From the NCBI GenBank assembly GCA_964445435.1, contig CAYUKU010000006.1, forward strand, positions 1,112 to 65,111: a stretch of 64,000 nt of DNA, written 5' to 3'. Shown piece after piece: positions 1 to 39,274 of the stretch. Position 1 is the first letter of the stretch; every line of letters starts with the position of its first letter. The stretch is from an uncultured Gammaproteobacteria bacterium (GTDB taxonomy: Bacteria; Patescibacteriota; Microgenomatia; UBA10105; UBA927). A program made the translations under genes and the position numbers. The notes under the pieces were generated by a model, which was not told where the DNA came from, made no database searches, and was given only the letters and a program-made list of their open reading frames with translations.

Positions 1-886
1 CCGAAAGAAACAGAAGAAATATATACACCGTATTCTGCGAAAGAATATTGAAATAATACATCACGGACCTAGTCGAGAAGGTGTTTGCCATCTCTGCGAA
101 CCGATATTCCCGCACCCACGCAGCTCCGTTTTGCTGGTTTCTTGCGATATACGCGACAAATTCACCCCAATTAGGCAGGAAATACAATAATAAGGGCAAA
201 ACAAATGCCAATCCGAAAAAGAGCGCGAGCGTACGAATACGCTCTGCGCGTTTCCGTGAACGAGCAACTTGCCAAAAGGCCGTACTCACAATGGCAAGAA
301 GCGGTCCAGCCAGAAAAACGACTGCAATCCAACGGGTAAGGACTGCCAGAGCACAAAAAATTCCCGCCAAAACGGCATCCCGTCGTTTTCGAAGCGCATC
401 TGAACGCACGAGAAACACTGTCGACCAGATGATAAAAGTCGTGACAGCGGTTTCGGTGTATGTAAAGTGGGAGTAAAACAAAGCATTACCAAGACCCGCA
501 AACACGACAGCTGCGACGATTGCAGTCTTCTCGTCAAACGCCTGCCGTGCAAGCGCGTATGTTCCTGCAGCTGATCCTGCAAAAAATAGTCCGTTCAATA
601 AGAGCGCAACGGTATAGGTATATGAAGTACCCAAAACAAGCATTAGAAGCGCAATCAAGAGACTATAGACAGGCTGAAGATACCCCGTTGCCTCTAACAT
701 GTTTGCATATGTCGCGAGTGATGGAGATCTGAGGAGATCATGGTATTTGAGAGCCAATGACAGGTAATTGTGCTCGTCCCACTGAGGATATTGGCGACTT
801 TTCAACACATAGAGCGTATGCCCTATAACCAAGAGAATTACCAGAAGAAAGAGTGCATACCTGATAACCCGTGCGTTTGGCCTCAT
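1..886 (-). CDS. ArnT/PMT_2-like GT-C membrane glycosyltransferase, partial. The start is at 886 and the C-terminus runs past the window start. The ORF track misses it because there is no in-window stop.
   Basis: I translated the minus strand from the ATG at 886-884 and get an open frame of about 295 codons: MRPNARVIRYALFLLVILLVIGHTLYVLKSRQYPQWDEHNYLSLALKYHDLL...YALARQAFDEKTAIVAAVVFAGLGNALFYSHFTYTETAV... It has multiple TM helices, an acidic QWDEH loop motif, and an 'ARQAFDEKTA..SP..YS..TYTET' segment typical of PMT_2/ArnT-like proteins. Confidence 0.55.
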   Translation of the reverse strand, partial: MRPNARVIRYALFLLVILLVIGHTLYVLKSRQYPQWDEHNYLSLALKYHDLLRSPSLATYANMLEATGYLQPVYSLLIALLMLVLGTSYTYTVALLLNGLFFAGSAAGTYALARQAFDEKTAIVAAVVFAGLGNALFYSHFTYTETAVTTFIIWSTVFLVRSDALRKRRDAVLAGIFCALAVLTRWIAVVFLAGPLLAIVSTAFWQVARSRKRAERIRTLALFFGLAFVLPLLLYFLPNWGEFVAYIARNQQNGAAWVREYRFAEMANTFSTRSVMYYFNILSQNTVYIFLLFLS

Positions 887-912
887 AAATACGTTCCTGT
901 ATAATTGGGCAA
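887..912. promoter_or_regulatory. A 26-bp divergent intergenic region with a TATAAT box 8 nt upstream of the + gene ATG, implying a near-leaderless transcript.
   Basis: Sequence aaatacgttcctgtataattgggcaa ATG. It is the only non-coding space between the divergent genes 1..886(-) and 913..1929(+). Confidence 0.2.
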
Positions 913-3076: not shown

Positions 3077-3095
3077 GGTGATATAATACCCCACG

Positions 3096-4073
3096 ATGAA
3101 ACAGAATCGTAAACTCCTTGTCGCAGTAACGGGCGCTTCAGGTTTCCTGGGAAGCCGCATGGTTCCTTTTTTGAAAGAGAAAGGTCATACAGTTCGCGCA
3201 ATCCTGCGCAAACACAACCCTCAAACGAAAGAATACTATTCACAGTCAGATAAAATCGTCTACGCTGACCTTTCAGACATGCAGGCGACCCGCCGCGCGC
3301 TTCGGGGTGCCCACTTCGTGTTTCATTTCGCAGCTGATATGGGCGGAGTCGGATATTTTTCCAAGGAGCAGTACGTTCCGTTCGTCACAAACATGCGCAT
3401 GGATCTCAATATCCTTGCTGCGTGCGAGCAAAACGGCGTAAAGCGTCTCTTTTACCCCTCCAGTGCGTGTGCGTATCCCACCGACGCGGCCACCCGCCTC
3501 AGGAAAATCCCAAAACTGGAGGAAACCATGTTTTTGCCCGCAAATCCCGATCAAATGTACGGATGGGAAAAGCTTACCATGCTGCTTTTATCCTCGCATG
3601 CACCGGTAGAAACACGCGTGGGAGTTCTCCATACGATTTTTGGTCCAGGACAGGAATGGTCAGGAGCACGAGCGAAATTTCCACCCGCCATAACATACAA
3701 GGTCATCCAGGCCGCGCGAACGAAATCACCCATCCGCATTTGGGGAGACGGCAAACAGCTCCGAACGTTTCTCTATATCTCGGATGCGCTTGAGAAAATC
3801 TATGAAGTCATGATGGCTAAAGACTACTGGGGCCCCGTGAATATATCCGGCGACCAGCAGGTGACGGTGAAAGAATGTGCAGACTGGCTCGCCAAACTCG
3901 CCGGCATTAAGCCGGTATATATATATGAAAAAGATAAACCAACCGGCGTGATGCTACGGGGAGTAAATAACGATAAGTATAAGAAGCACTACGCATATCG
4001 AAACAAGGTATCGACGAAGAAAGGGTTTTCGCTTCTGTATGAGTACATGCGCGAAAGAATAAAGGAACCTTAG
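3096..4073 (+). CDS. NAD-dependent epimerase/dehydratase (SDR), resembling GDP-mannose 3,5-epimerase (GME).
   Basis: A Rossmann motif VTGASGFLGS. FHFAADMGGVGYF, NGVKRLFYPSSACAYP, PDQMYGWEKL (a YxxxK active site) and HTIFGPGQEW...IWGDGKQLRTF match my memory of GME signatures (LAADMGGMGFI; RFFYASSACIYPE; DAYGLEKL; HNIYGP..W; WGDGLQTRSF). Confidence 0.55.
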   Translation: MKQNRKLLVAVTGASGFLGSRMVPFLKEKGHTVRAILRKHNPQTKEYYSQSDKIVYADLSDMQATRRALRGAHFVFHFAADMGGVGYFSKEQYVPFVTNMRMDLNILAACEQNGVKRLFYPSSACAYPTDAATRLRKIPKLEETMFLPANPDQMYGWEKLTMLLLSSHAPVETRVGVLHTIFGPGQEWSGARAKFPPAITYKVIQAARTKSPIRIWGDGKQLRTFLYISDALEKIYEVMMAKDYWGPVNISGDQQVTVKECADWLAKLAGIKPVYIYEKDKPTGVMLRGVNNDKYKKHYAYRNKVSTKKGFSLLYEYMRERIKEP

Positions 4074-5536
4074 GTTCGTGCTTCCGCTTCCTTTAGCATT
4101 TCTTCGACTTCTCTTCGGAACGGAAAATTTACTGGCATTTTCTTAAGCAGAAATTCAATATCTTCCCAGGAATTCTCCCGTTTCGCATTATTATACAAAT
4201 CGCGTGCTTTTACGAAGTTTCTGTAGTATTCGATATGATATCGGGCTTTCGTCAGTTTATTCCAAAACCGTGAACCCGCAAACGGCGGGTTAACTTGAGT
4301 TCTGTCATACAGACGATTTGCCGTCTCGTAATCCCCCCTCGCGAGTGCCGTTTCGATTGAAGCGACGATCTGGTCTTCTTTTGCCGAGGGGATCCAAAAC
4401 CCGATGAGTAGCGCCAATAACGCTGCGATGGAAACAACACTCAATTCCCTGACAGTAAGTTCCTTGAACCGCTTACCCCATAGAAGCCATCCCAAACCCA
4501 ACCCCAAGAAAACTATCTGCCAGGACAAACCAAACATTTGCCGATCCATCCGGATTCCTATAAAAGGCACATAGTAGTCGCCTCCGCTCATAACAAGCAG
4601 CATAAACAGGGTTTGCAGTACCACGAAAAACGAAAAAAATATGTTTGGGGATTGCGAAAGAAGCGGCAGTGTGAGAACGAAGTACTGTTCGGAAATCGCA
4701 GGCGAAAATAAAACCAGAATACATCCGTACCAGGCCGCCGATTGTGCCAGAGAAATCCTGCGGGCGAATACCCCCCCCAATGTAAGCGCCAAAACGAACA
4801 GAAACATTGGCGATACGTAACGGCTTAAAAAATCAGGTACGAAAACATGCCAGAACGGCGCGTTATTAAATGAGGTATATAAAAAAACGTTTTGTATAAT
4901 CCCGGCAAAGCCATCCCGCAAAAACGGAAGGAAACTCAGAAAAAATATTCCCGTAGGGAGACCTACTGTTACAAGTTTCCATTTCCACGTTTTTTCGCGT
5001 ATCGCAAGCCAAACCGGAAAAAAGAAAAAAATATGTTTGATGATAAGGGAAACACCAAGGAGCGCCAAGCCAGATATTTTCCTTTTTCGCGCAAGAAGCC
5101 ATACTGCCGTCAAACCTGCCAAAAGCGCAAGATTATCAAACTGGCTATAATAACCGGTCACGAGTATAGAAATCGGATTCAAGTAGTAGAGATATGCAGT
5201 GGTCCGGGAAAACAGTGAGGATAGAAGAAAAAACAATCCGATATCCACAAGCGCAAGAACTCCTGCGGTAAAATACCGTAACGCGAAAAACGGATCCGGA
5301 AAAAGGAGTGCTAACTTATAAAGAATCGCAAGGACATAAAACCAAAACGGTCCGTAGTTATATCGGGCGGTTTCTGCGTACACGTTTTTGTGTTCAAGAA
5401 TCGCCCGAGCAGCAATCTGGTATGATTCCATGTCATAGGTGAAACCTGCCGTTGCGGCCAGAAACCGAACCAAGACGCCAACACCCAAAAAAACAAAAAG
5501 CAGGGAAACGCGATACTTGTTAACGAATGCCTTCAT
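4070..5536 (-). CDS. Polytopic membrane protein, DUF2029/GT87-like GT-C glycosyltransferase, with a C-terminal soluble helical domain.
   Basis: 488 aa. The N-terminal TM helix is followed by the loop YDMESYQIAARAILEHKNVY...YNYGPFWFY. The same pattern, (Y/H)D..(..)A.R..L..KN(P)Y, occurs in 26702, 37965 and 60835. It has roughly 10 TM segments. The stop codon overlaps the convergent 3096..4073 gene. Confidence 0.45.
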   Translation of the reverse strand: MKAFVNKYRVSLLFVFLGVGVLVRFLAATAGFTYDMESYQIAARAILEHKNVYAETARYNYGPFWFYVLAILYKLALLFPDPFFALRYFTAGVLALVDIGLFFLLSSLFSRTTAYLYYLNPISILVTGYYSQFDNLALLAGLTAVWLLARKRKISGLALLGVSLIIKHIFFFFPVWLAIREKTWKWKLVTVGLPTGIFFLSFLPFLRDGFAGIIQNVFLYTSFNNAPFWHVFVPDFLSRYVSPMFLFVLALTLGGVFARRISLAQSAAWYGCILVLFSPAISEQYFVLTLPLLSQSPNIFFSFFVVLQTLFMLLVMSGGDYYVPFIGIRMDRQMFGLSWQIVFLGLGLGWLLWGKRFKELTVRELSVVSIAALLALLIGFWIPSAKEDQIVASIETALARGDYETANRLYDRTQVNPPFAGSRFWNKLTKARYHIEYYRNFVKARDLYNNAKRENSWEDIEFLLKKMPVNFPFRREVEEMLKEAEART

Positions 5537-7166
5537 GAACGAGTTTCTTTTCTCCCGATACGTACCGGAGTCGTATTACACGATCGCTCGGGATATCCGG
5601 GCGCTGTGCGAGAAACGCAGCGAGCGTTTTTTCGTCCCAAAAATATCCAAATCCTCCACCTCCCGCCTCTTTATAGCCTTGGGCGTTGATGTTCCACAGG
5701 AACATGGAAGCCAAAAGCTCTTTTGGTATCTTTCCGGTTTTATAAAACCACACCATGACGGTATAGCCCATCCCCTGCTGAAACGGAACTGAAAGATCAC
5801 CGATTCCGTAGTACCCCGGACTGTCTCCCGAAATGAGAAATATCGGATTATCAGGAAGCTTCGAAACTACGGCATCCATTTGACGAAGAAAGTTTTTCCG
5901 TTCATCTGCCAAAATCTTATCAAATTGTATCCCACGCCGAATATAGACAGCATTCTTATAAAGATACGCCGCGAACGACATCCAGATCAGTACGGCAAAA
6001 AGTACACCAAGCCATCTTCTTTGTATTTTTTGCAGGAGGACCATACATCCTGACAATAATCCGGCAACCAGAAATGCCGCACCGACTGCAGATAAGTAAT
6101 AATAACGGGACTCGAGAAACGCGCTTGCCGGACGGTCCAAAACGATAAACGGCAAAAAGCTTAGTAACACAAATACTATGCCGACGTGAAATTGCCGGCG
6201 AAGCGCTTTTTGCTTCAAGGAGACTGTCATGACAAAAACGAGTAACACAATCGAGGCGTACAGAGAAACGAGATCACCGACCAGAATAAGGCTGACTGCC
6301 TGTTTGAGGGGGTGAGCATCCAGAAATTCGTATGCCGTATGAGAAACGGATTGAGAGACGGGAAACAGAATTTCTTTCGGGATAAATACCTGGGAAATCC
6401 CAAGAACCGGATAGAAAAACGCGTGTACCAGCATCCGAGAACCCGTATCAGATCCTCGGGTCACATAGACGCCACCCTGCCCTTCTGCACCGTTGAGTCC
6501 CCACAATCGAACTGCGATCGCAAACACCAGAAACGCGACGACCGGCCAAAATTTCCTTGCAAGCTCGCGCAGTGACGCGCTGGTCTTTGTGAAATACAGA
6601 AACGGAAGAAATACAAACAGAAACAGGCTTGATTCTTTAAACAGGAAGGATATGTACACAAACACAAGCGACAATGTCAGATACAGCTCTTTTTTCTTTT
6701 CGGTATAAGAAATGATCGCGTGGAGCGACAGGAGCGCAAACAAGGCATTCGGAAGTGTTGTCGTGTTTGCTGAAATCCAGGAGACTGCCTGGCTTGGCGT
6801 TGAAGCAGCAGCAAAAAAAAGTGCACCTGCAAATGAGGCAAATGGCCGCCTCGTAAATCGATCCAGAAGTCGAAAAACCAGAAATGAATTTACCAGGTGC
6901 ACAAAAATCGCAAAAAGCGAAAAGGCATATACACGCAAGGGAAACAGAAAATGAAAAGCGTTGTTCAGCAGGCTTCCCGCAATGCGCTCTTTTCCGGTAA
7001 AAAGTTCCGGAAGCGAATACGAGCCAATGTTTCCCAAAAGACCGTTCACCTGAACGAATCCCAAACTCGCCCACTCGTCCTGCTGGAAGAACGTATCCCA
7101 CAGTCCCCAGTAGGCATAGAGAATAGCCGCAAGAAGAAAGACGATGATAAAAAAATTACGCTTCAT
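5520..7166 (-). CDS. GT-C-type membrane glycosyltransferase of the 'FFQQDEW' family (PMT/ArnT-like acidic loop).
   Basis: 548 aa with about 11 TM helices. WGLWDTFFQQDEWASLGFV lies in the first loop; compare the FDE.HFG motif of the PMT family. It has a C-terminal soluble domain and is a paralog of 11383..12966. Confidence 0.5.
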   Translation of the reverse strand: MKRNFFIIVFLLAAILYAYWGLWDTFFQQDEWASLGFVQVNGLLGNIGSYSLPELFTGKERIAGSLLNNAFHFLFPLRVYAFSLFAIFVHLVNSFLVFRLLDRFTRRPFASFAGALFFAAASTPSQAVSWISANTTTLPNALFALLSLHAIISYTEKKKELYLTLSLVFVYISFLFKESSLFLFVFLPFLYFTKTSASLRELARKFWPVVAFLVFAIAVRLWGLNGAEGQGGVYVTRGSDTGSRMLVHAFFYPVLGISQVFIPKEILFPVSQSVSHTAYEFLDAHPLKQAVSLILVGDLVSLYASIVLLVFVMTVSLKQKALRRQFHVGIVFVLLSFLPFIVLDRPASAFLESRYYYLSAVGAAFLVAGLLSGCMVLLQKIQRRWLGVLFAVLIWMSFAAYLYKNAVYIRRGIQFDKILADERKNFLRQMDAVVSKLPDNPIFLISGDSPGYYGIGDLSVPFQQGMGYTVMVWFYKTGKIPKELLASMFLWNINAQGYKEAGGGGFGYFWDEKTLAAFLAQRPDIPSDRVIRLRYVSGEKKLVHEGIR

Positions 7167-8181
7167 CTGACGGTTTCCCTTGTGATAGGGCTATGTAATA
7201 CGACAGGCTTGGCTTTCTCACAATACGCGGGAGAAACGCACTGTCATCAATGACGCGGATGTGTGTCTGAACGTACTGCCTCTTCTTGAGCGTATTGCCT
7301 ATGTGCAGCACATTCCACAACAAACTATTCTGGATCGCCAGTGATAATGCGAACTTTCCCCTGATAAACGACGTGAACGCAAAAAATTCACACATCGCAA
7401 GGTGGATTGGGAGAAGTTTCGCAAGCTCCCACGTGCTTAAGTTCTTCATGTATGTACAGATGCGATTCTTGAACGAATGATACTGTATAAACGCGTTATC
7501 CATACCCGTACTCGTGCCTCCCATCTTGTGATACACCACTGATTGCGGAGCATAGACCACGCGCTTTCCGGCCAGCCATATTCTGTGACACAAATCTGTC
7601 TCCTCGAAGTATGCGAAATAGGACGGATCAAACATGCTGCCGTCAACCTCTACCTTCTTAAGTACATCCCGCCGAAACATCACGGCCGCTCCTTTGGCGG
7701 TATACATATCGTCCGTTTCATCGTACTTTTTCGCATCCTTTTTGCCGAACCCCCAGTGAAGAAGAAACCCGGTGGGAGTGAGAAACGCTCCTGCCGCGTC
7801 CAGGCGTGTCTTATCGTCCATAAGAAGCAGTTTGCTCTGTACGCAGCCGATATCGGGTGCTGATTTCATCTTTTCCACGAGCTTACTGATGAAATCAGGT
7901 TCCACACGGGTATCGTTGTTAAGAAGAAGAATATACTCACCGCGGGCACTTCTATATCCGGCGTTGTTGCCCTCGGCAAATCCTTCGTTTTTCCTGTTTT
8001 GAACGATTTTTACCTTCGGATATTGTTTTCTCGTCCATGCAACCGATTCATCGGTGGAAGCGTTATCAACGAGGATAATTTCGGTTCCCGAATATGTTTG
8101 CTTGGCAAGCGACGGCAATGACATTTTCAACCACCGCAACCCGTTCCAGTTCACGATGATGATTGAAACCGTACCACTCAT
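7156..8181 (-). CDS. GT2-family glycosyltransferase (WcaA/rhamnosyltransferase-like).
   Basis: VSIIIVNWNG...EIILVDNASTDESV...LLLNNDTRV...DVGCVQSKLL. It shares the family of 44917..45828 and 52167..53081. It makes a 4-nt ATGA overlap with the upstream gene. Confidence 0.75.
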   Translation of the reverse strand: MSGTVSIIIVNWNGLRWLKMSLPSLAKQTYSGTEIILVDNASTDESVAWTRKQYPKVKIVQNRKNEGFAEGNNAGYRSARGEYILLLNNDTRVEPDFISKLVEKMKSAPDIGCVQSKLLLMDDKTRLDAAGAFLTPTGFLLHWGFGKKDAKKYDETDDMYTAKGAAVMFRRDVLKKVEVDGSMFDPSYFAYFEETDLCHRIWLAGKRVVYAPQSVVYHKMGGTSTGMDNAFIQYHSFKNRICTYMKNLSTWELAKLLPIHLAMCEFFAFTSFIRGKFALSLAIQNSLLWNVLHIGNTLKKRQYVQTHIRVIDDSAFLPRIVRKPSLSYYIALSQGKPSDEA

Positions 8182-9491
8182 TTGGTTTTCAGAAAGTCCG
8201 TGATGTTCTCGGCTATATAATCAATCTCACGATCACCCAATCCGGGATAGACGCCCACGAAAAACGTGTTGTGAAGAATCCTGTCCGCATTCGGAAGCTC
8301 TTCCGCTACCCGATATTTCACGTTACGATACGCCGCCTGCCTGGTGATATTTCCTGCAAACAACGGACGGGTCTGGATCATCCGTTCCTCAAGATACATC
8401 GTAATCTCATGTCTGGTAAACGGCGCATCGTCGCGGATAGTCAGAGGCATCGCAAACCAGCACGGGTTGGCCTTCGGAAGTGCTTTGGGAAGGATAAAAT
8501 ACTTTTCCCATGCCGCGGCGTATTTACTCATACGGGAGAAATTATGCGCCCGGGCCTTCATGAATGACGGCATTCTTTTGAGTTGTTCGACACCCATGGC
8601 CGCCTGAGGCTCAATGGGCTTGAGGTTGTACCCGATTTGATTAAACATATACTTATGATCATAGGGTTTGCCGTCTACCCGATAGTTAAACCGTGCGTTG
8701 CATGCTCCGTGGGTAGTCTTGTCATCTCCCCGGCACCAGCACGATCGGCCCCAATCCCGCAATGATCTGGTAATTCTCTCGAACCGAAGATCATTGTAGT
8801 ACACAGCTCCCCCTTCTCCCATCGTCATATGGTGCGGAGGATAAAACGACTGCGTGGCAAGAATGCCGAATCCGCCGGTCCGTTTCCCGTCGTATTCACT
8901 GCCCAAAGCATCACAATTATCCTCTATGAGAAAAAGATCGTGCTCCTTTGCAAATTCAACGATCACATCCATCTCGTTGGGATTTCCAAGGGTATGGGCG
9001 ACCATGATCGCGCGGGTTTTTCGGGATAAGGCCTTCTCAAGTTTTTTCGCGTCGATATTATAGGTTTCGGGGTTCACATCAAGAAATACGGGCACCATTT
9101 CATGATTGATAATGGGGTTGACTGTCGTAGGAAATCCGCACGCAGCGGTAATAATTTCGTCGCCGGGCTCCAAATGCCGCGGAAAAAAGTATGACCGAAG
9201 TGACGCAACTGCCAGAAAATTCGAACTTGAACCTGAATTCGTAAGAATGCTGCCCTTTGCTCCCACAAACGCGGCCAAACCCTTTTCGAGTTCTTCTGCC
9301 TTCTTCCCTAACCCAAACCACCCGTCAATGAGAACTGATACGCTTGCGTTTATCTCATGATCGTCGAAGACGCCGCCGGCGTATTGCACCCATGTCTTGC
9401 CCGGGATGAATTTTTTGTTTCGCTTGCGGCCATCGAAAATTTTGGTAATTCTTGCCGCAATTTCCTTTCGAAGCTTGGTTTCCCCGTCCAT
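8178..9491 (-). CDS. rfbH: CDP-4-keto-6-deoxyglucose 3-dehydrase-like enzyme (E1, RfbH/DdhC family; DegT-fold PMP enzyme).
   Basis: 437 aa. This is the DegT/AHBA-synthase fold, but the normally conserved PLP lysine is His (SFYPPHHMTMGEGG). There is a Cys cluster, RSCWCRGDDKTTHGAC (C-x-C-x10-C), that looks like the E1 [2Fe-2S] site. The length matches RfbH. Confidence 0.65.
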   Translation of the reverse strand: MDGETKLRKEIAARITKIFDGRKRNKKFIPGKTWVQYAGGVFDDHEINASVSVLIDGWFGLGKKAEELEKGLAAFVGAKGSILTNSGSSSNFLAVASLRSYFFPRHLEPGDEIITAACGFPTTVNPIINHEMVPVFLDVNPETYNIDAKKLEKALSRKTRAIMVAHTLGNPNEMDVIVEFAKEHDLFLIEDNCDALGSEYDGKRTGGFGILATQSFYPPHHMTMGEGGAVYYNDLRFERITRSLRDWGRSCWCRGDDKTTHGACNARFNYRVDGKPYDHKYMFNQIGYNLKPIEPQAAMGVEQLKRMPSFMKARAHNFSRMSKYAAAWEKYFILPKALPKANPCWFAMPLTIRDDAPFTRHEITMYLEERMIQTRPLFAGNITRQAAYRNVKYRVAEELPNADRILHNTFFVGVYPGLGDREIDYIAENITDFLKTK

Positions 9492-9497
9492 AATCGG

Positions 9498-10403
9498 TTA
9501 ATGAGTCTTATAAAATTCAATAGTCTTGACCAGGCCGTTTTTTATGCTCGTCTCCGGCTTCCACCCGAGAATAGTTGCCGCTTTCTGATTGTCCAGAAGC
9601 CATTCATCCGATTCTCCGATTCTATCGGGAATAGCCCCAAGGCGCAACACGGATGAACTTCCTATCAGCTGGACAATCCTATCTGCGAGCTCCTGTAGCG
9701 TAATTGGCTCTCCGCCGCCGATATTGATAATCTCATATCCGACGGGTTTTTCCCGGGACATTGCCCGCGCAATAGCATCAACGACATCTCCAACGAACAC
9801 ATAGTCCCGTTTTTTTGTGCCAGAAGTAAGGGGGATTTCCTCGTTCCTGAGGGCTTTTTTTATAATCTGACTGATCAGGCGATGATCGGGAAGGTAAGGC
9901 CCGTACATCGTGCCAATTCGAAACACGTAGCAACCTGCATATGCACTATCTTTATAGAGCCGTAACAAGTGTTCGCACGTTCGCTTAGTCGCTGCATAAG
10001 GAGAGGGCGGATACGTGATTGCATTTTCCCGGTATGGAATGACTCCCTGCCCGTATACTTCCTCCGTGCTTGCGAAGATAAATTTCTTAGCAGGTCTATC
10101 TTTGAGGGCCAGTAAAAGGTGTGTCGTTCCTATGATATTTACCTCTGCCGTTTTTCTGGCGACTTCGAAATTGCGGGAAAGATCGACCAACGCGCCGACA
10201 TGACAAACGATATCCGGCGCAAATGAGGTAACCTCCTTATAAACCGCCTTTTCGTCGGTAAGATCAAGAGATCGAATACCCAAATTGTCATCTTCGTGTC
10301 CTGCCGTAGCCAGAATTTCGTACTCACCGCCTCCCCGAAGGTGCGAGAGCAGATTTTTCCCCAAAAAACCAGTTGCGCCCGTCATGAAAACTTTTTGTTT
10401 CAT
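9498..10403 (-). CDS. NAD(P)-dependent sugar epimerase/reductase (SDR). It is possibly the 4-reductase or epimerase partner of the RfbH-like enzyme.
   Basis: I moved the start to MKQKVFMTGATGFLGKNL (ATG at 10403), which gives a classic ATGA overlap with the upstream stop. The catalytic motif is YAATK. Confidence 0.7.
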   Translation of the reverse strand: MKQKVFMTGATGFLGKNLLSHLRGGGEYEILATAGHEDDNLGIRSLDLTDEKAVYKEVTSFAPDIVCHVGALVDLSRNFEVARKTAEVNIIGTTHLLLALKDRPAKKFIFASTEEVYGQGVIPYRENAITYPPSPYAATKRTCEHLLRLYKDSAYAGCYVFRIGTMYGPYLPDHRLISQIIKKALRNEEIPLTSGTKKRDYVFVGDVVDAIARAMSREKPVGYEIINIGGGEPITLQELADRIVQLIGSSSVLRLGAIPDRIGESDEWLLDNQKAATILGWKPETSIKNGLVKTIEFYKTH

Positions 10404-11473
10404 ATCATCTTGCTCCATCGCCGCAATGACGCCGTGCCGTATGCCAATAGATACACCCAACACACCACCGGGTGTAAAAACCACGCCGGATCTTGAAGAT
10501 AAACAAAACCCCTTACCCCGTCCAGAAATGGTTTGATAAAAGTCACCGTATATATAATGTAAAGAAGAAGCTTCAAACGATGATGTGAATTGGTTGGATC
10601 ATAAATAAAATACCGCCTCTTCGTATTGTTCTTCAGGTAATAACTCGAAAGGAACGCAATGCGCTTTTTCATGAGAAACGAAAGGCTTATCGCAGTATCA
10701 TGCAACACATCGGTATCAACGATAGCAAATCGGTTATATCCGCTTTTAATGAGGTCAGCAAATACATCAATGTGAAGGAAATGCGTCGGGTCACTCTGGG
10801 CATATTTCAGAAGAAGATCTTTCCTGTAGACGACACCGTTACAGCCCACGGTCGGAAGGGTTTGGGACGTAAATTCAACGGTGGTGTATGAAGCAGTTTT
10901 TTTTATGACGGTTCCGCCCTTCCATTCCCGGACGTACTGCGGAACCCGATCAGGTATGCCGACATAAAACACAATCGGATCGATTGCGCCAAACAACGCA
11001 TTATACCGGTTAAACAGTGCGTCGGATTTTTGGTAATGGTAATGGAGCGTTCCGGCGTGAACGACCCGAGGGTCGTCGATAAACGGCTGGACCATTTTTG
11101 TAAGCCACTTCCTGTCTAGCACATAATTATCAGCGTCAAGTGAAACAACAAGGTTATGTTTCGCGAGGGCAACTCCCACCCCTCGCTGTGCTTCTGCATT
11201 CTTTGGGATAGGGCTTCTGATACTTCTGAATCCGTATTTCTTCAGGATATGCACGGTTGAATCAGTTGACCCTCCGTCAACATTCAGATATTCAATTTTC
11301 TCTTTAGGATACTCTTGAGCGGCAACGCAGGCCAGGCATCTTTCAAGCGAACGCTCGTTATTGAGCGTCACGATAAGAATGGTTATGTTTGGGAGTCCTT
11401 TGCCTTCGGACATACAACTGGCTCCCCCATTTGGGGAGGTATGTCTTGTATTATATGCTTTTGGCTGTCCCAC
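10400..11473 (-). CDS. GT2-family glycosyltransferase with a C-terminal membrane segment.
   Basis: ITILIVTLNNERSLERCL...IEYLNVDGGSTDST...VVSLDADNYV. It is a paralog of 913..1929. The alternative start MSEGKG at 11413 would cut the overlap with the upstream gene from 90 nt to 30 nt. Confidence 0.7.
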   Translation of the reverse strand: MGQPKAYNTRHTSPNGGASCMSEGKGLPNITILIVTLNNERSLERCLACVAAQEYPKEKIEYLNVDGGSTDSTVHILKKYGFRSIRSPIPKNAEAQRGVGVALAKHNLVVSLDADNYVLDRKWLTKMVQPFIDDPRVVHAGTLHYHYQKSDALFNRYNALFGAIDPIVFYVGIPDRVPQYVREWKGGTVIKKTASYTTVEFTSQTLPTVGCNGVVYRKDLLLKYAQSDPTHFLHIDVFADLIKSGYNRFAIVDTDVLHDTAISLSFLMKKRIAFLSSYYLKNNTKRRYFIYDPTNSHHRLKLLLYIIYTVTFIKPFLDGVRGFVYLQDPAWFLHPVVCWVYLLAYGTASLRRWSKMI

Positions 11474-18033: not shown

Positions 18034-18927
18034 TTAACGATTGGTGTATCTGAAATATGCCCGTAAAAATTTCCACTGTAGTGCCAATGGCAACCTACTC
18101 CTTTTCTTTTTCACTTGTCCTGCTGTAGCGTATCCCACTGCGTATCCTGCAATTGCCCAAAACAAGGCAAGTAGGGTTCTTTTGTACAAGGCAAAGGACG
18201 CGATCCAAACCAGATCCCGCAGCGTTATCAATGGAAATAAACCGCACGAAAAATATTTCGCATTCAGCCATGCCTTGTTGCGAAAAATCGTGTACGACTG
18301 GAAGGGACGAAAATGCAATTCCTGATCGTGGTGAAGCACTCGAACGGCCGGATCAAATAGTATTTGGTGCCCCTTTCCAAGAAGCCGGAGCGCCAAATCA
18401 TCTTCATGAAGCCACAGAAAAAAATCTTCGTCAAATCCGCCGACGGCACGAAATGATTCTTTGCGAAACGCGGTTGCCCCCCCTGGAAAAGTAAATAGGC
18501 TGTGCCCGGAAAGCCAGGGAACCCGCTTCCAGAAGTACGACTTCTGATTCATGTTGTACACGTTGCCCGCAATAGCCGCAACGTTCATCGGTTCTCGTTG
18601 GAATCTTTGTACCAGCATCTTCAATCCGTCTTTTTCTATCTCGCAGTCTTCATCAAGGAAAAAAACATACCTGCCCCTGCTCATATCGATGCCTTTGTTT
18701 AACCCAGATATTCCGGCATTTTTACCCATCGAGACGACTCGAGCTGCAGGGTGGCGGGCACGAAGATAAGAAAGATATGATCGAGAGGAAGAGTTTACGA
18801 TAAGTAAAAGTTCATAAGGGCGATACGAAGAGCGCCTCACTGAACCAACACAAAGATCAAGGGTTGCCGACTTTTTTGGTCCGACCAATACGATAACAGA
18901 AACAATCGGGTGTGGCGTATGTTTCAT
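18034..18927 (-). CDS. GT2-family glycosyltransferase.
   Basis: VSVIVLVGPK...YELLLIVNSS...VFFLDEDCEI...GGATAFRKESF. Confidence 0.65.
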   Translation of the reverse strand: MKHTPHPIVSVIVLVGPKKSATLDLCVGSVRRSSYRPYELLLIVNSSSRSYLSYLRARHPAARVVSMGKNAGISGLNKGIDMSRGRYVFFLDEDCEIEKDGLKMLVQRFQREPMNVAAIAGNVYNMNQKSYFWKRVPWLSGHSLFTFPGGATAFRKESFRAVGGFDEDFFLWLHEDDLALRLLGKGHQILFDPAVRVLHHDQELHFRPFQSYTIFRNKAWLNAKYFSCGLFPLITLRDLVWIASFALYKRTLLALFWAIAGYAVGYATAGQVKKKRSRLPLALQWKFLRAYFRYTNR

Positions 18928-18933
18928 GTACTA

Positions 18934-20250
18934 TCACTGCTCGTTGTATAGCAAAACAGCCCATACAGACAGGAAAACAAGTATAGCAAACTGGGCAAAT
19001 ACATTCCGGCGGGCAAAAATCGCCATGCGCTTGCTGGAAACAAACTCAGGGAGGATACCCGTGGCAAACCAGAGGATAATCCCCCGGTACATCGGATAGG
19101 AAAATCCAAATACGACTGCCCACGTTTGCGAAAGCAATGACACTGAAACGCCAAGCATAACAAACGAAAGAACAGCGAATTTGTGTACATAGTCGCGGGC
19201 AAAAACGGCAAGAGCCGTAACGAGAAACGGGTAAAAAGGATACCGATACCACCCGTGACTGGGTTCATTCGGAATCGCTGCAATATAAACAAGAAAGTAT
19301 CCCAAAAGGCCGAAGCAAAGGTATATATGCTTCTTCATATCCTTCACAAACAGCATAAACCACGCCAACCAACCGGCGTATATCCACCCGTCCACATAAT
19401 ACCGGTCAACAAGATACGGTTGAGTCAGGAGGGCATATATACTATTGAATGTCATGTCGTACCGGGCCAGTTGAAGCCGCCATAAGGAAAGAAAGAGCTT
19501 CTGATCCCACCAGAACCCGTACCCGATAAAAAGAAGGAAGAATCCGGTGACAACCCCTGTAAAAAACGCCGCATCACGATATTTTTTCCTGTATAGCAAA
19601 ATTCCGACTGACGATACGGTTGCAGCAATCCAGGGAACCTTCGCAAGAATGGCAAATCCCGCCAAGACTGCAGCAAGGTACAGGAAACGCCTTTCCCCCT
19701 TCTCTATGTATGTATGTACACAAAGGAGAATTCCCAAAAACATGGGAATGAAGAAATTCTCATTTTGCAGTATGCGCGACCCGACAACAATGGTAGGAAT
19801 AATTGCGTAAAGGAGCGAAGCAAGAAGCCCCACTTGTACGCCATACAAACGATAGGCAAACAGGTATACCATGACGATGCTCGCGACACCTAGAATAAGC
19901 GCTAATTGCCGCATGGAGGCAAATGACACGGTATACATATCAGAGGCGCCGGCGAGTCGTGCGTACGCGCCGGCTATAAGTCCAAAGACTGGAGGATGTT
20001 CCAAGTATGGCTCCACGAGCCAGAATCTCGCGCCACCTGAGGATATATAATGCGTCCGCTTCTGATACTGCGGATGAGGCGACCATGATATCGGAACGCC
20101 CGTCGTAAGAAGATTTACTCCTAACCATGTCCATGCGTACTCATCAAAGGTCGCTCCCTCGCGCGGCCAAGTTGTATACTTGTGAAACCGTAAAAGAAAT
20201 CCAACGATAAGAATCGCCGCAAGAAAAAATAGTGCGTACTTTTTGAACAT
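18934..20250 (-). CDS. ArnT/PMT_2-like GT-C membrane glycosyltransferase.
   Basis: 438 aa with about 11 TM helices. An N-terminal helix is followed by TWPREGATFDEYAWTW (a DE motif), and PVFGLIAGAYARLAG... Confidence 0.55.
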   Translation of the reverse strand: MFKKYALFFLAAILIVGFLLRFHKYTTWPREGATFDEYAWTWLGVNLLTTGVPISWSPHPQYQKRTHYISSGGARFWLVEPYLEHPPVFGLIAGAYARLAGASDMYTVSFASMRQLALILGVASIVMVYLFAYRLYGVQVGLLASLLYAIIPTIVVGSRILQNENFFIPMFLGILLCVHTYIEKGERRFLYLAAVLAGFAILAKVPWIAATVSSVGILLYRKKYRDAAFFTGVVTGFFLLFIGYGFWWDQKLFLSLWRLQLARYDMTFNSIYALLTQPYLVDRYYVDGWIYAGWLAWFMLFVKDMKKHIYLCFGLLGYFLVYIAAIPNEPSHGWYRYPFYPFLVTALAVFARDYVHKFAVLSFVMLGVSVSLLSQTWAVVFGFSYPMYRGIILWFATGILPEFVSSKRMAIFARRNVFAQFAILVFLSVWAVLLYNEQ

Positions 20251-30770: not shown

Positions 30771-32422
30771 GGAAGTATTGCCGCCTTTACAGCAATTGTA
30801 CCATCCAGATTGGCGAATCTGGCAACTTCCATCGCTCCAGGCGCAAAATCATCGGAATTTCCCACGTACAGAACTCCTTTTGTGAGAGCCTCGTTCTTCT
30901 GAATCGGGCGGAATTCGTATTTTCCGAACCTGTGCGTTTGCGCGTATCCACCGGAATCAGTCCCGCCTTCTTTCCTGTAGATGGCCGGATCATATCTGCT
31001 GTAATACAGAAAAAGCATATAGGACTGGTACAAATTCTCCTCGTTTGAAAAAACTATTTTTTCATAGGAATCTTCTTCTCTCAGGACATACCCGATTGCA
31101 CGGGAGAACGCATAATGAAATGAGCCCGATTGTTCGTACGGAAAATTGACGAAGTAATTTCTTATAAATCCCCCCAATCCGAACAAGGAAAGAAACAGGA
31201 TAGCTCCTGTTAAATATACGTTCCCCGATTTGGCAAAAGCTATGGCGTTCATAATCCCAAACGCCGTGAATACCTCCCATGCAAAAAGAGCCGGATAGGT
31301 TCTCATCGCGTGTGGAGCGCCTGTTGCTATGCCTCCCGGAAGGTTCGCCAAAAGGAGCCACAAGAAAACGCTTCTTTTCACCTTCGGATGTACGTCTTTT
31401 TTGAAGAGAAATGCAAAAAGTCCAATCAGTATAAATGGCAACTGCCAAAGGTACAAAAGTCCCGAGTTTGGGGCTTTGAACGGTTCTCCCCCTGAGTTGA
31501 AAAAAAGCCACTTCGGTCGGAAATGAGATGAATACGCCTGGACAAAAACTTCCACGGGAAATATGTACATGCTGTTTGCAATTCTTCCGATCACATCACC
31601 CTCCAAAACAGCCTTCTGCCGGCGCTCCATGCGCTTGGTGTACTCCTGCCAGTGAGCCTCGGGTTTGAAGGTACTCGTCCCGCTGAAACGTACTATCGCG
31701 CTTGGAGAAAACGTCAGTGCCGCGATCCATATGCATACCACAAAAACGGGCAGAAAAACGATGAGAAATCTTCTATTTTTCAGGAAAACAGGTGTGATAT
31801 CACGGTAATATAAAAGAAAAAGTCCTAATCCGAAAATCGGGATGAAAACCTGGCCCGCGTAATAACTGATAACGGCGACCGTAAAAAAAACAAGTGCCGG
31901 AATGAAGGAATACACGTGTCGTGCTCCCCGCAGGAAAAAATAAAACCCAAACAGAGCCGCTGAGACATATGCGTTCGTTTCATGTCCGATCCGAGAAAGA
32001 TATATATGCCATGGACTTGTAGCCCACAGGCAGGCAACCAGAAGCGATACGACATGTGCGGACTTGCCGTGTCTGCCAAACAACTCCATGGAAATCCCAT
32101 ACACGGCCCAAGTAGTTAAGACGGCAAGAAGCACTGCCGGCATTCTGATCGCAACGCTTGTGAGACCCAGAGAGCCGACGAATGGAGCAACGAGAAAAAG
32201 GTATGTGCTTCTACGCCAATCGTCATACCCCCTTTGGGATATAAAGGGAAAATCACCGAATTCGTCAACTCCTGTTTTCACAACGCTGTACGCGTTGTAG
32301 CCGATTGAGGCCTCGTCCATGGAGGTTGACGGAGGAACGCCGCCAAGATTCCATAATCGCAGCGATGCCGCCGCAAGAAGTATACCGGCAAGTACAATAT
32401 TTGAGATGACACGCATCTTCAC
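30767..32422 (-). CDS. ArnT/PMT_2-like GT-C membrane glycosyltransferase (COG1807-type).
   Basis: PPSTSMDEASIGYNAYSVVKTGVDEFGDFPFISQRGYDDW...; it has about 12 TM helices and a C-terminal soluble domain. Confidence 0.65.
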   Translation of the reverse strand: MKMRVISNIVLAGILLAAASLRLWNLGGVPPSTSMDEASIGYNAYSVVKTGVDEFGDFPFISQRGYDDWRRSTYLFLVAPFVGSLGLTSVAIRMPAVLLAVLTTWAVYGISMELFGRHGKSAHVVSLLVACLWATSPWHIYLSRIGHETNAYVSAALFGFYFFLRGARHVYSFIPALVFFTVAVISYYAGQVFIPIFGLGLFLLYYRDITPVFLKNRRFLIVFLPVFVVCIWIAALTFSPSAIVRFSGTSTFKPEAHWQEYTKRMERRQKAVLEGDVIGRIANSMYIFPVEVFVQAYSSHFRPKWLFFNSGGEPFKAPNSGLLYLWQLPFILIGLFAFLFKKDVHPKVKRSVFLWLLLANLPGGIATGAPHAMRTYPALFAWEVFTAFGIMNAIAFAKSGNVYLTGAILFLSLFGLGGFIRNYFVNFPYEQSGSFHYAFSRAIGYVLREEDSYEKIVFSNEENLYQSYMLFLYYSRYDPAIYRKEGGTDSGGYAQTHRFGKYEFRPIQKNEALTKGVLYVGNSDDFAPGAMEVARFANLDGTIAVKAAILP

Positions 32423-33492
32423 GATAATGCCTTCAGCAGTTTAAATGCACCCATTTTTGGCAGGCTTCTGTTTGCAGACAGGTTGCTCTTCCCCATGACT
32501 TTAAACGTTTTCTTGCGGTGGAGATACCAACGATAATTCTCGATGAATGATTCCAGATTCGTTTTTCGGGGACGCCATTTCAGTTTCGTTTTCAGTTTGG
32601 TCGTGTCTGCGTAAATTGAGCGGCTCATCATAGTGTATTGGTATACCCCGACGGGTGAAATATTTAACCTATCAAGGACCGCAAGCGCCCATACAGCCGG
32701 CCCCTGTGGAAGAGGCACGATGGCAGATGAGCTTCCGGCAAATTCTATAACCCCTTCGTAAAGCTTACGAAGGGGCATGTATCCGTCACCCCCGATGACA
32801 TAAATATCAAACCCTTTTTGCCTGCTTGCTCTTATCAGGGCGTCACAGACGTCTGACGCGTCCACGAACTGATAGATATTTGAACCGTCACCGAGAAGAT
32901 ACACATTTTTATTTTCGGATATAAACTCATACAGGATACTTTGCAGACCTAACCTCCCGACGCCGGTAATGACCGGACAACGGAATATTTGGATATTCAT
33001 CTTGGTTTTGTACTTCGCTAGTTCACTCTCTGCGGCCAGCTTACTCTTCCCGTATGCTTCCAAAGGGCGCGGCGGCGTTTCCTCGGTCACCGGAAGTTCG
33101 CTTGGAATCCCATACGTAACGTTGCTGGAGGTAAACACGAACGATTTCACACCGCTCCCAACCGCTTCTTTCGCAATATGAGCAGTACCTTCCACGTTGG
33201 TCTTCCACGTCATTTCATCTGATAAGGCCTTATTGGGCATCGCTGCGGCAAGATGATATACGACGTCGAACGGCCCTTCCGTCTCAAATAACCGCTTCAC
33301 GGAATCGGCATCTAGCACGTTTCCCTTCGCCCAACGCACGAATCGCGAGTAATTCACGGGCGAATGATTGCTAAGCCGGTCGAAGACTACAATGTCCTTC
33401 TCTCCCTTCTCAAGGAGGAGTCGAATAAGGTAGCTGCCCAAAAAACCCGCTCCTCCGGTGATAAGAATTCTTTTAGTTTTTGTGCTGCGCAT
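32419..33492 (-). CDS. NAD-dependent sugar epimerase/dehydratase (SDR).
   Basis: ILITGGAGFLGSYL...YHLAA...FTSSNVTYG...PLEAYGKSK (YxxxK). Confidence 0.75.
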   Translation of the reverse strand: MRSTKTKRILITGGAGFLGSYLIRLLLEKGEKDIVVFDRLSNHSPVNYSRFVRWAKGNVLDADSVKRLFETEGPFDVVYHLAAAMPNKALSDEMTWKTNVEGTAHIAKEAVGSGVKSFVFTSSNVTYGIPSELPVTEETPPRPLEAYGKSKLAAESELAKYKTKMNIQIFRCPVITGVGRLGLQSILYEFISENKNVYLLGDGSNIYQFVDASDVCDALIRASRQKGFDIYVIGGDGYMPLRKLYEGVIEFAGSSSAIVPLPQGPAVWALAVLDRLNISPVGVYQYTMMSRSIYADTTKLKTKLKWRPRKTNLESFIENYRWYLHRKKTFKVMGKSNLSANRSLPKMGAFKLLKALS

Positions 33493-39227: not shown

Positions 39228-39274
39228 GGAATCATTGTATCACGGCCTCTGTTATAATCCGTATCAGAACTCTT
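39228..39274. promoter_or_regulatory. Divergent promoter region; an extended -10 (TGTTATAAT) for the + operon 39275-44923.
   Basis: tgTTATAAT lies at 39250-39258, 16 nt upstream of the ATG at 39275. There is no obvious Shine-Dalgarno sequence. This is the only gap between the head-to-head operons. Confidence 0.3.

Follow-up and report, generated by a model that had tools for sequence, protein, structure and literature searches.

GDP-mannose 3,5-epimerase (GME, also written GM35E; EC 5.1.3.18) is one of the few routes from a D-hexose to an L-hexose that require a single enzyme. To our knowledge, the only GM35Es to have been characterised come from plants and algae, apart from a single bacterial one. 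The bacterial GM35E, that of Methylacidiphilum fumariolicum (MfGM35E), is ~50% identical to the Arabidopsis thaliana enzyme (AtGME) (PMC6678494). A review of these enzymes gives as diagnostic residues the triad Ser143/Tyr174/Lys178, the acid-base pair Cys145/Lys217 (with His in GMER/Fcl), Arg306, which acidifies the Cys and is Lys in GMER, Arg243, which sits on the diphosphate, and the highly conserved Asn203, and it calls for homologues with other specificities or with epimerisation at a single site (PMC8787198). Here we analyzed a 64 kb stretch of contig CAYUKU010000006.1 (the window), which contains on its forward strand an ATG-to-stop open reading frame (ORF) at 3096..4073 that is real and encodes a protein of 325 amino acids (aa), referred to below as the epimerase. 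The closest known system is GM35E, as represented by the enzymes of A. thaliana (2C59/2C54), Myrciaria dubia (8SG0) and M. fumariolicum. Judged by its sequence, the epimerase is a member of a separate, biochemically uncharted clade of the GME family, which we called the T-clade for the Thr that replaces Asn203, and it is not an orthologue of the GMEs that have been tested.

Several comparisons placed the epimerase in the GME family. In a phmmer search of all Protein Data Bank (PDB) sequences the top match was AtGME (2c59; E 7.2e-47, 163 bits, query residues 6-323 against chain residues 29-343) and the second was the other plant GME, 8sg0, with the next family well behind at 72 bits and E values of 4e-19 for MoeE5 and 1e-17 for Fcl. 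BLASTP gave 32% identity to AtGME (E 1e-54) and 23% identity to Escherichia coli Fcl (75 bits, E 1e-19). As measured on these sequences, the resemblance to GME is far above chance and well ahead of that to the next families. Scores with a profile of the T-clade were 274 bits for GME, 130 for MoeE5, 127 for Fcl and 84 for WbmF, and a WbmF-like identity was rejected on the difference between the first and last of these values. Pfam assigned the epimerase to the broad epimerase/dehydratase family PF01370 only, and no NCBIfam model reached its cut-off on it; the best was the Fcl model NF047922, with 78.8 bits against a cut-off of 500, and the GalE model TIGR01179 scored 40 bits against a cut-off of 262.

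The extended short-chain dehydrogenase/reductase (SDR) Rossmann fold, with its N-terminal glycine motif, was evident both in the sequence and in an AlphaFold2 model that was built from a 28-sequence alignment (mean predicted local distance difference test score 93.4). The best PDB structure matches of this model were again the GMEs 2c59, 2c54 and 8sg0 (template modelling (TM) score 0.89, root-mean-square deviation 2.0, E 2.5e-31, or about 1e-31), and GalE-type structures ranked behind them (E 7e-24). To test family membership we aligned 138 sequences: the epimerase, AtGME, E. coli Fcl, Gmd, RfbB, RfbD, GalE and HldD as annotated in the K-12 genome, the window's two other SDRs, and a set of 128 homologues made up of 114 representatives of 50%-identity clusters and 14 closer matches. 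In the tree, which was built by neighbor-joining only and has a poorly resolved backbone, the epimerase fell inside a large family that has the Cys/Lys pair, and Fcl, HldD, RmlB, GalE, Gmd and RmlD were all outside it. GalE, RmlD and dehydratase identities were rejected based on this placement and on the residues that those enzymes have in place of the Cys and Lys. Several members of the T-clade have already been labelled "GDP-D-mannose 3',5'-epimerase" by JGI.

The catalytic residues of GM35E could be mapped onto the epimerase in both pairwise and multiple alignments (positions in Table 1). Ser123, Tyr155 and Lys159 align with the triad Ser143/Tyr174/Lys178, and Cys125 and Lys194 match the acid-base pair Cys145/Lys217; the latter two residues are invariant in the T-clade, and E. 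coli Fcl has His at the Lys column. Arg288 and Arg223, which correspond to Arg306 and Arg243, are 100% conserved in both the T-clade and the canonical GMEs. At Arg288 the HMMER pairwise alignment was off by one residue, and this was corrected by the multiple alignment, which is anchored on P-x-G-V. Read across AtGME columns 143/145/174/178/203/217/243 of the 138-sequence alignment, the epimerase has S-C-Y-K-T-K-R, AtGME S-C-Y-K-N-K-R and Fcl S-C-Y-K-N-H-R, and at columns 304/306 the three have M-R, R-R and P-K, respectively. The Cys/His pair plus Lys of the Fcl type is not present in the epimerase, in which Lys and Arg occupy those columns, and the E. coli GalE, RmlB, Gmd, HldD and RmlD proteins have other residues where the Cys and Lys would be (T/G, Y/N, E/H). 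By alignment, the GME-specific catalytic set is therefore complete in the epimerase except for Asn203, which is replaced by Thr180.

These results bear on a first-pass annotation of the window, which had interpreted the protein as GME-like based on four peptides that resembled plant GME signatures. All four lie within the 325-aa protein, and in the full-length alignment with 2c59 they pair with the AtGME blocks NLAADMGGMGFI, RFFYASSACIYPE, DAYGLEKL and WGDGLQTRSF. That the protein resembles GME and not GalE, RmlD or Fcl was upheld by the PDB scores (163 vs 72 bits), the TM score and the catalytic set. Two of the checks that the annotation had proposed also came out in its favor: the protein has both the Cys and the Lys, as well as the triad and the Cys-acidifying Arg, and the tree and its bootstraps kept the epimerase apart from GalE, RmlD and Fcl, so that neither of the outcomes it had named as contrary, a place in a generic SDR clade or a loss of the GME residues, was seen. 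Overall, the annotation is borne out in part: its GME-like assignment agrees with sequence, residues and tree; its view that such proteins are uncommon in bacteria does not agree with our data (see below).

The T-clade was set apart from canonical GMEs by a bimodal distribution of phmmer scores: T-type sequences scored 270-740 bits against the epimerase and 110-195 against AtGME, and canonical sequences scored 150-220 and 300-390 bits, respectively. We compared 118 target-like with 79 canonical sequences position by position. At 74 positions the canonical GMEs are at least 95% conserved, and 46 of these are retained in the T-clade, including the catalytic set and, in the nucleotide-binding half, K225, W236, Q241, R243 and D309 (AtGME numbering). 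What is new here, as far as sequence can tell, is a clade that lacks two canonical GM35E features, Asn203 and the NAD-binding Asp, yet has the catalytic core intact. We have described the epimerase as GME-like, and have not filed it as a GM35E, because those two features are missing from it.

We regard the gene arrangement with its conservation, the family placement and the conserved catalytic residues as established, and we infer the chemistry, substrate, product and the role of the glycosyltransferases. It seems probable, if only just, that the epimerase is a stand-alone GME-like sugar-nucleotide epimerase acting on a GDP-hexose-type substrate. A tightly bound nicotinamide cofactor, together with Ser123, Tyr155 and Lys159, would transiently oxidise C4 of a nucleoside diphosphate (NDP)-hexose. 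Next, Cys125 and Lys194, which would face the sugar from opposite sides, would abstract protons from C5 and/or C3 and give them back, with Arg288 maintaining the Cys as thiolate and Arg223 holding the diphosphate, and C4 would be re-reduced at the end to complete a redox-neutral cycle. The substrate would be drawn from the sugar-nucleotide pool of the cell, with GDP-D-mannose or another GDP-manno sugar the leading candidate, and the product would be of the GDP-L-galactose or GDP-L-gulose type. This rare sugar nucleotide would serve the co-transcribed family 4 glycosyltransferase (GT4), and probably the family 2 glycosyltransferase (GT2), as donor for adding the sugar to a surface glycan, glycolipid or glycoprotein. 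We speculate that the product is passed on via a polyprenyl-phosphate carrier because the GT2 has C-terminal hydrophobic segments and the locus is rich in GT-C proteins.

Much of this interpretation comes from the gene neighborhoods of relatives, which are referred to here by locus number. L004, L005 and L112, the epimerases of which are 69-99% identical to ours, have the same gene order as the window: GT2-GT4-epimerase, then the two membrane proteins in convergent orientation, and after them a GT2, an RfbH and a dehydratase. In all three, the orthologue of the first GT2 is ~1.2 kb upstream of the epimerase. The most conserved partner of the epimerase is the GT4, orthologues of which (430-860 bits) lie 3-47 bp upstream in L004, L005, L087, L107 and L112-L115. 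At lower identity the GT4 alone remains adjacent, upstream in L114 (62%), as an upstream fragment in L201 (66%) and overlapping downstream in L006/L202 (57%). Among relatives of 40-50% identity there are at least 15 loci in which a GT2 of ~220 aa lies next to the gene and often runs into its start, and a GT4 sometimes follows. A dedicated role in donor supply is suggested by this constant adjacency to glycosyltransferases. The closest relative in the genome collection, at 76% identity and with the same RfbH neighbor, was L007 (CAZKLT010000023.1), a 9 kb contig of a metagenome-assembled genome labelled Gammaproteobacteria; that contig may be mis-binned, and a separate relative of 53% identity comes from Candidatus Roizmanbacteria.

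T-clade genes also occur in phages: homologues of phage structural genes were found in four of these more distant loci of 40-50% identity (L092/L122, L093, L108 and L121). In L121 (IMGVR_UViG_3300025115_000075) the genes for a small GT2 of 219 aa, a T-type epimerase and a GT4 of 368 aa make up a cassette at 7360-10045, which is flanked, according to PHROGs, by genes for the large terminase subunit, portal and major head protein upstream and for virion structural proteins downstream. No match to any reference dehydratase or nucleotidyltransferase query was found in the phage cassettes. These cassettes may serve glycosylation of the virion or of the host surface with a rare sugar. P0101, a relative of 495 aa and 46% identity, has HNH (PF01844) and NinG (PF05766) domains in addition; this points to a gene, in a phage context, that is either fused or mis-called.

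Most T-clade loci, including those of phages, have no dedicated upstream pathway close by, and this is why we favor a pool sugar nucleotide as the substrate and a redox-neutral epimerase rather than a 4-keto reductase. Only two T-clade loci, L116 and L118, have sugar-nucleotide genes close by, and in both these are of GDP type. In L116 (3024-12848) a 55%-identical homologue directly follows a dehydratase-like SDR and is 5 kb from GmhA-, HddA- and HddC-like genes. This arrangement, that of a GDP-D-glycero-D-manno-heptose route, hints that some members of the clade act on GDP-heptose or its 6-deoxy-4-keto derivative. In L118 the homologue, P0074, follows a weak match to GT11 (a fucosyltransferase family) and a GT2 (8249-10894), an Fcl-like SDR (18372-19331, 286 bits) is 8 kb from it, and an ABC-type O-antigen exporter (Wzm/Wzt) is nearby. 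A GDP-manno substrate is preferred here because of these two contexts, the conserved residues on the nucleotide side and the WGDG tryptophan that is common to Fcl.

Several observations weigh against a GDP-hexose epimerase of the GME kind. The T-clade comprises 38 cluster representatives (neighbor-joining bootstrap 76/100) and AtGME is not among them; at 32% identity to AtGME, the epimerase is outside the clade of the characterised enzymes (At, Os, Mf). Asn203, a residue of the "orange wall" and present in 97% of the 79 canonical sequences, is Thr in 100% of the T-clade (LHTIFGP in the epimerase vs FHN.YGP). Arg200, Gly209, Gly214, Glu216, Arg224, Gly254 and Arg304, which are 96-100% conserved in canonical GMEs, are V, Q, A, A, Y, K and M in the epimerase. 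Canonical GMEs bind the NAD ribose through Asp58, which closes beta-2 and is 100% conserved among them; in the epimerase its place is taken by Leu37, with Arg38-Lys39 next. No gene for ManB, Gmd or Fcl, and none for ManC or any other nucleotidyltransferase, was found within the 64 kb window, so that the GDP-mannose pyrophosphorylase for which the first-pass annotation had proposed to look did not turn up there. When the dereplicated loci whose flanks reached 8 kb or more were examined for the GDP-sugar genes Gmd, Fcl, ManC, ManB and HddA within 10 kb, 26 of the 28 T-clade loci had none of them, and the frequency of such neighbors was 2/28 for T-type and 22/102 for canonical loci, a difference that is suggestive but not significant (Fisher p = 0.10). 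Sequence similarity has also misled before in this superfamily, in that the Fcl-like DdahC and MlghC are reductases without epimerase activity (PMC7949155).

The substitutions extend over the whole clade, with Gly209 replaced by Gln (100%), Arg200 by Ile/Val, Glu216 by Ala, Arg224 by Tyr, Gly254 by Lys and Arg304 by Leu/Met, and several of them surround the loop of the catalytic Lys; as a pattern they would fit a changed substrate or binding mode. The NAD-type Asp was lost in all relatives of at least 54% identity that were sampled (every third aligned sequence). Arg-Lys after beta-2 is usually linked to NADP(H) in SDRs. The sequence thus suggests an NADP(H)-like cofactor site in the sub-branch of the epimerase. 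The conversion of GDP-mannose into GDP-L-galactose or GDP-L-gulose, as raised in the first-pass annotation, is then a reasonable guess and not an inference from orthology, because the epimerase is outside the clade of tested GMEs and has lost Asn203 as well as several charged residues that never vary among the canonical enzymes.

It is possible, although we consider it doubtful, that the T-clade and GM35E are sisters with distinct functions, and that in the T-clade the Cys/Lys proton shuttle was kept, the substrate pocket was remodelled and, in one sub-branch, the cofactor site became NADP-type. The rare sugar nucleotide made by its members would then be another one, such as a GDP-heptose of L configuration, an epimer at C3 or C5 only, or an L-hexose not linked to GDP. 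The GT2, GT4 and epimerase would form a portable decoration cassette, used in giant glycan loci of uncultured bacteria and in phage structural modules, possibly for virion glycosylation.

A related alternative, which we think rather unlikely, is that the epimerase has the same fold and Cys/Lys chemistry and acts on another substrate (a UDP-, CDP-, dTDP- or ADP-hexose, an N-acetylhexosamine or GDP-heptose), or epimerises a single centre, C3 or C5, so that its product would be neither GDP-L-galactose nor GDP-L-gulose. Of the 74 canonical-invariant positions the T-clade has lost 28; R200, N203, E216, R224 and R304, near the substrate pocket and Lys loop, are among them, and the genes for ManC, Gmd and Fcl, often found beside canonical GMEs, are not near most T-clade genes (in viral loci, Gmd accompanies 13/61 canonical and 0/17 T-type genes). 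The L116 locus favors GDP-heptose over GDP-mannose, and the review of GM35Es asks whether single 3- or 5-epimerases and homologues active on NDP-glucose exist (PMC8787198). However, both clades have W236, K225, Q241, R243 and D309 in common in the nucleotide-binding half, the tryptophan of WG[DS]G is common to the GDP-specific Fcl, and the sole informative T-clade contexts are GDP-linked, with no non-GDP nucleotidyltransferase beside any T-clade gene that was examined.

We think it improbable that the epimerase is instead an NADPH-dependent epimerase/4-reductase of the Fcl/ColC kind. In that case the SDR at 9498..10484 and the RfbH at 8178..9491 would make an NDP-4-keto-3,6-dideoxyhexose, and our protein would finish this RfbH branch by epimerising C5 and reducing C4, so that a colitose- or ascarylose-type 3,6-dideoxy-L-hexose results. 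The RfbH and the Thr/Glu dehydratase are indeed 4-6 kb away in the window and in L004, L005, L007 and L112, no other candidate 4-reductase SDR was found within ~20 kb (the next SDR is at 32419..33492), the dehydratase-like SDR of L116 is directly upstream of the homologue, and the loss of the NAD-type Asp, with Arg-Lys after it, makes the cofactor site of the sub-branch NADP(H)-like. Tightly bound NADP+, however, also serves SDRs that do not reduce their substrate, such as HldD and Gmd. The epimerase is moreover on the opposite strand from the RfbH and is transcribed with the GT2 and GT4, most T-clade genes, including the phage cassettes, have no dehydratase nearby, and the Cys/Lys pair with Arg is of the GME type and not the Cys/His plus Lys type of epimerase-reductases (PMC8787198). 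The RfbH branch is only a minor rival because RfbH is not conserved beside close relatives, being absent near those of L201 (66%), L006/L202 (57%) and L116 (55%). That the epimerase is a generic extended SDR (a GalE-type 4-epimerase, 4,6-dehydratase or simple 4-reductase) with a GME likeness at the superfamily level only, as its Pfam and NCBIfam results might suggest, is very improbable and largely refuted, since GME leads the other solved families by at least 90 bits with the single sequence and at least 140 bits with the clade profile, and GalE, RmlB, Gmd, RmlD and HldD lack the Cys/Lys/Arg set and branch outside the clade.

The transcription unit to which the epimerase belongs and the neighboring genes are listed in Table 1. 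In line with the first-pass annotation, which had called the gene operonic with a GT2 and a GT4, the three are co-directional, the GT4 overlaps the end of the GT2 by 14 nt, a gap of 19 nt separates the GT4 from the epimerase, and the arrangement is conserved in related contigs. The hydrophobic segments of the GT2 have hydropathy peaks at ~aa 273-295 and 302-325. The sigma-70-like match at 877..905 ends 7 nt 5' of the ATG of the GT2, which suggests a leaderless transcript for the whole unit, although such sites are no more numerous in the region than expected from shuffled sequence. No Shine-Dalgarno sequence was seen before the ATG of the epimerase, and the hexamer at 3083..3088 may be an internal -10 box that would give this gene a leaderless start. 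TATAAT-like boxes (e.g., 901-906, 3083-3088 and 39250-39262) were observed 6-8 nt before the ATG of unit-starting genes at 913, 3096, 13291, 32419, 37965 and 39275, and a visible Shine-Dalgarno sequence was absent from almost every gene of the window. This suggests leaderless transcripts or initiation independent of Shine-Dalgarno sequences in the source organism.

Table 1. Features of the epimerase gene and its surroundings, in window coordinates; residues named as replaced are those of AtGME.
Feature	Coordinates	Strand	Remarks
Sigma-70-like promoter match, TTGGCC-17-TATAAT	877..905	+	10/12; consensus match alone
GT2 glycosyltransferase, 338 aa	913..1929	+	first gene of unit; PF00535, E 1.1e-23
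GT4 glycosyltransferase, 386 aa	1916..3076	+	PF00534/PF13692
TATAAT hexamer	3083..3088	+	7 nt 5' of epimerase ATG; seen in sequence, similar boxes before other first-in-unit genes
GME-family extended SDR (epimerase)	3096..4073	+	last gene of unit
GxxGxxG glycine motif	3132-3152	+	TGASGFLGS, aa 12-20
Leu37-Arg38-Lys39	3204-3212	+	replaces NAD-binding Asp
Peptide FHFAADMGGVGYF	3321-3359	+	aa 76-88
Peptide NGVKRLFYPSSACAYP	3432-3479	+	aa 113-128
Ser123	3462-3464	+	triad
Cys125	3468-3470	+	acid-base
Peptide PDQMYGWEKL	3546-3575	+	aa 151-160
Tyr155	3558-3560	+	triad
Lys159	3570-3572	+	triad
Thr180	3633-3635	+	replaces Asn203
Lys194	3675-3677	+	acid-base
Peptide IWGDGKQLRTF	3738-3770	+	aa 215-225
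Arg223	3762-3764	+	
Arg288	3957-3959	+	
Two large polytopic membrane proteins	4070..7166	-	488 aa, no Pfam match; 548 aa, weak PMT_2; convergent with epimerase
GT2, RfbH-like 3-dehydrase and dehydratase-like SDR block	7156..10484	-	
RfbH-like 3-dehydrase, pyridoxal/pyridoxamine phosphate (PLP/PMP) type	8178..9491	-	NF011936, 552.9 bits vs cut-off 423
4,6-dehydratase-like SDR	9498..10484	-	Thr/Glu signature; TEYK matches RmlB and Gmd

The window consists nearly entirely of glycan genes, with ~17 GT2, 5 GT4 and ~15 large GT-C-like membrane proteins (PMT_2, YfhO, PTPS_related and GT87), two flippase-like proteins, a GNAT acetyltransferase, a DegT aminotransferase and one further SDR (32419..33492). 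No housekeeping genes, tRNA genes or Rfam matches were found in its 64 kb. It appears as an unusually large and paralogue-rich glycan locus. The two membrane proteins convergent with the epimerase have orthologues in L004, L005, L007 and L112, and are neighbors conserved in the closest synteny group only. The RfbH/dehydratase block has the same distribution, being present in those four loci and absent in L201, L006/L202 and L116, and no E3-type reductase, nucleotidyltransferase or obvious 4-reductase was found near 8178-10484. The GTG start of the dehydratase-like SDR (328 aa) is probably too far upstream, as its orthologues are 301-307 aa.

The statement of the first-pass annotation that GME homologs are uncommon in bacteria is contradicted by the species-representative genomes of bacteria and archaea, in which relatives are encoded by at least 521 stretches. 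The search pattern used for this collection was general and returned almost only canonical GMEs: among the 80 loci kept of those at least 521 stretches, three were T-type (L007, L017 and L023). In the loci examined, 68 ORFs scored above 300 bits against AtGME and are canonical; they come from Chloroflexota, Alphaproteobacteria, Actinomycetota, Gemmatimonadota and others. Canonical GMEs are also abundant in viral contigs, making up 61 of the best 80 of at least 592 matching IMG/VR stretches (L138-L200). Often they are accompanied there by genes for Gmd (13 loci), Fcl (9) and a ManC-like protein (6), equivalent to a full GDP-L-sugar pathway on viral contigs.

If the epimerase is a plain GDP-mannose 3,5-epimerase, its assignment is routine annotation. 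The T-clade as a whole, well populated and with the catalytic machinery kept and the pocket and cofactor site changed, offers concrete candidates for the homologues of other specificity that have been called for, and its study would identify an unusual surface sugar of uncultured bacteria and of some phages.

In comparison to described systems, the epimerase has in common with the Fcl/GMER/GFS and ColC type the superfamily, the Cys at the same position, the WG.G block and a basic residue after beta-2. Unlike it, Fcl has His for Lys194 and Lys for Arg288, is 23% identical and branches outside the clade. BlmG of the bleomycin cluster, reported to be 42% identical to AtGME, and other putative bacterial GME homologues are likewise GME-like SDRs, presumed to provide a glycosyltransferase with an L-sugar (PMC6678494). 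The Streptomyces loci found here are, unlike the epimerase, canonical (RYHNVYGP); BlmG is compared here through its published description. Plant GMEs differ in having N-terminal and C-terminal extensions of ~25 and ~35 residues that the epimerase lacks, and AtGME in the residues that the epimerase has replaced: Asn203 by Thr, Asp58 by Leu with Arg-Lys after it, and Arg200, Gly209, Glu216, Arg224, Gly254 and Arg304. With GM35Es in general it shares the extended-SDR fold, GxxGxxG, the Ser/Tyr/Lys triad, the Cys/Lys pair, the Cys-acidifying Arg and the diphosphate Arg, as well as the AADMGG, SSAC.YP, YG.EKL and WGDG.Q.R.F blocks, and like MfGM35E it adjoins glycosyltransferases (PMC6678494).

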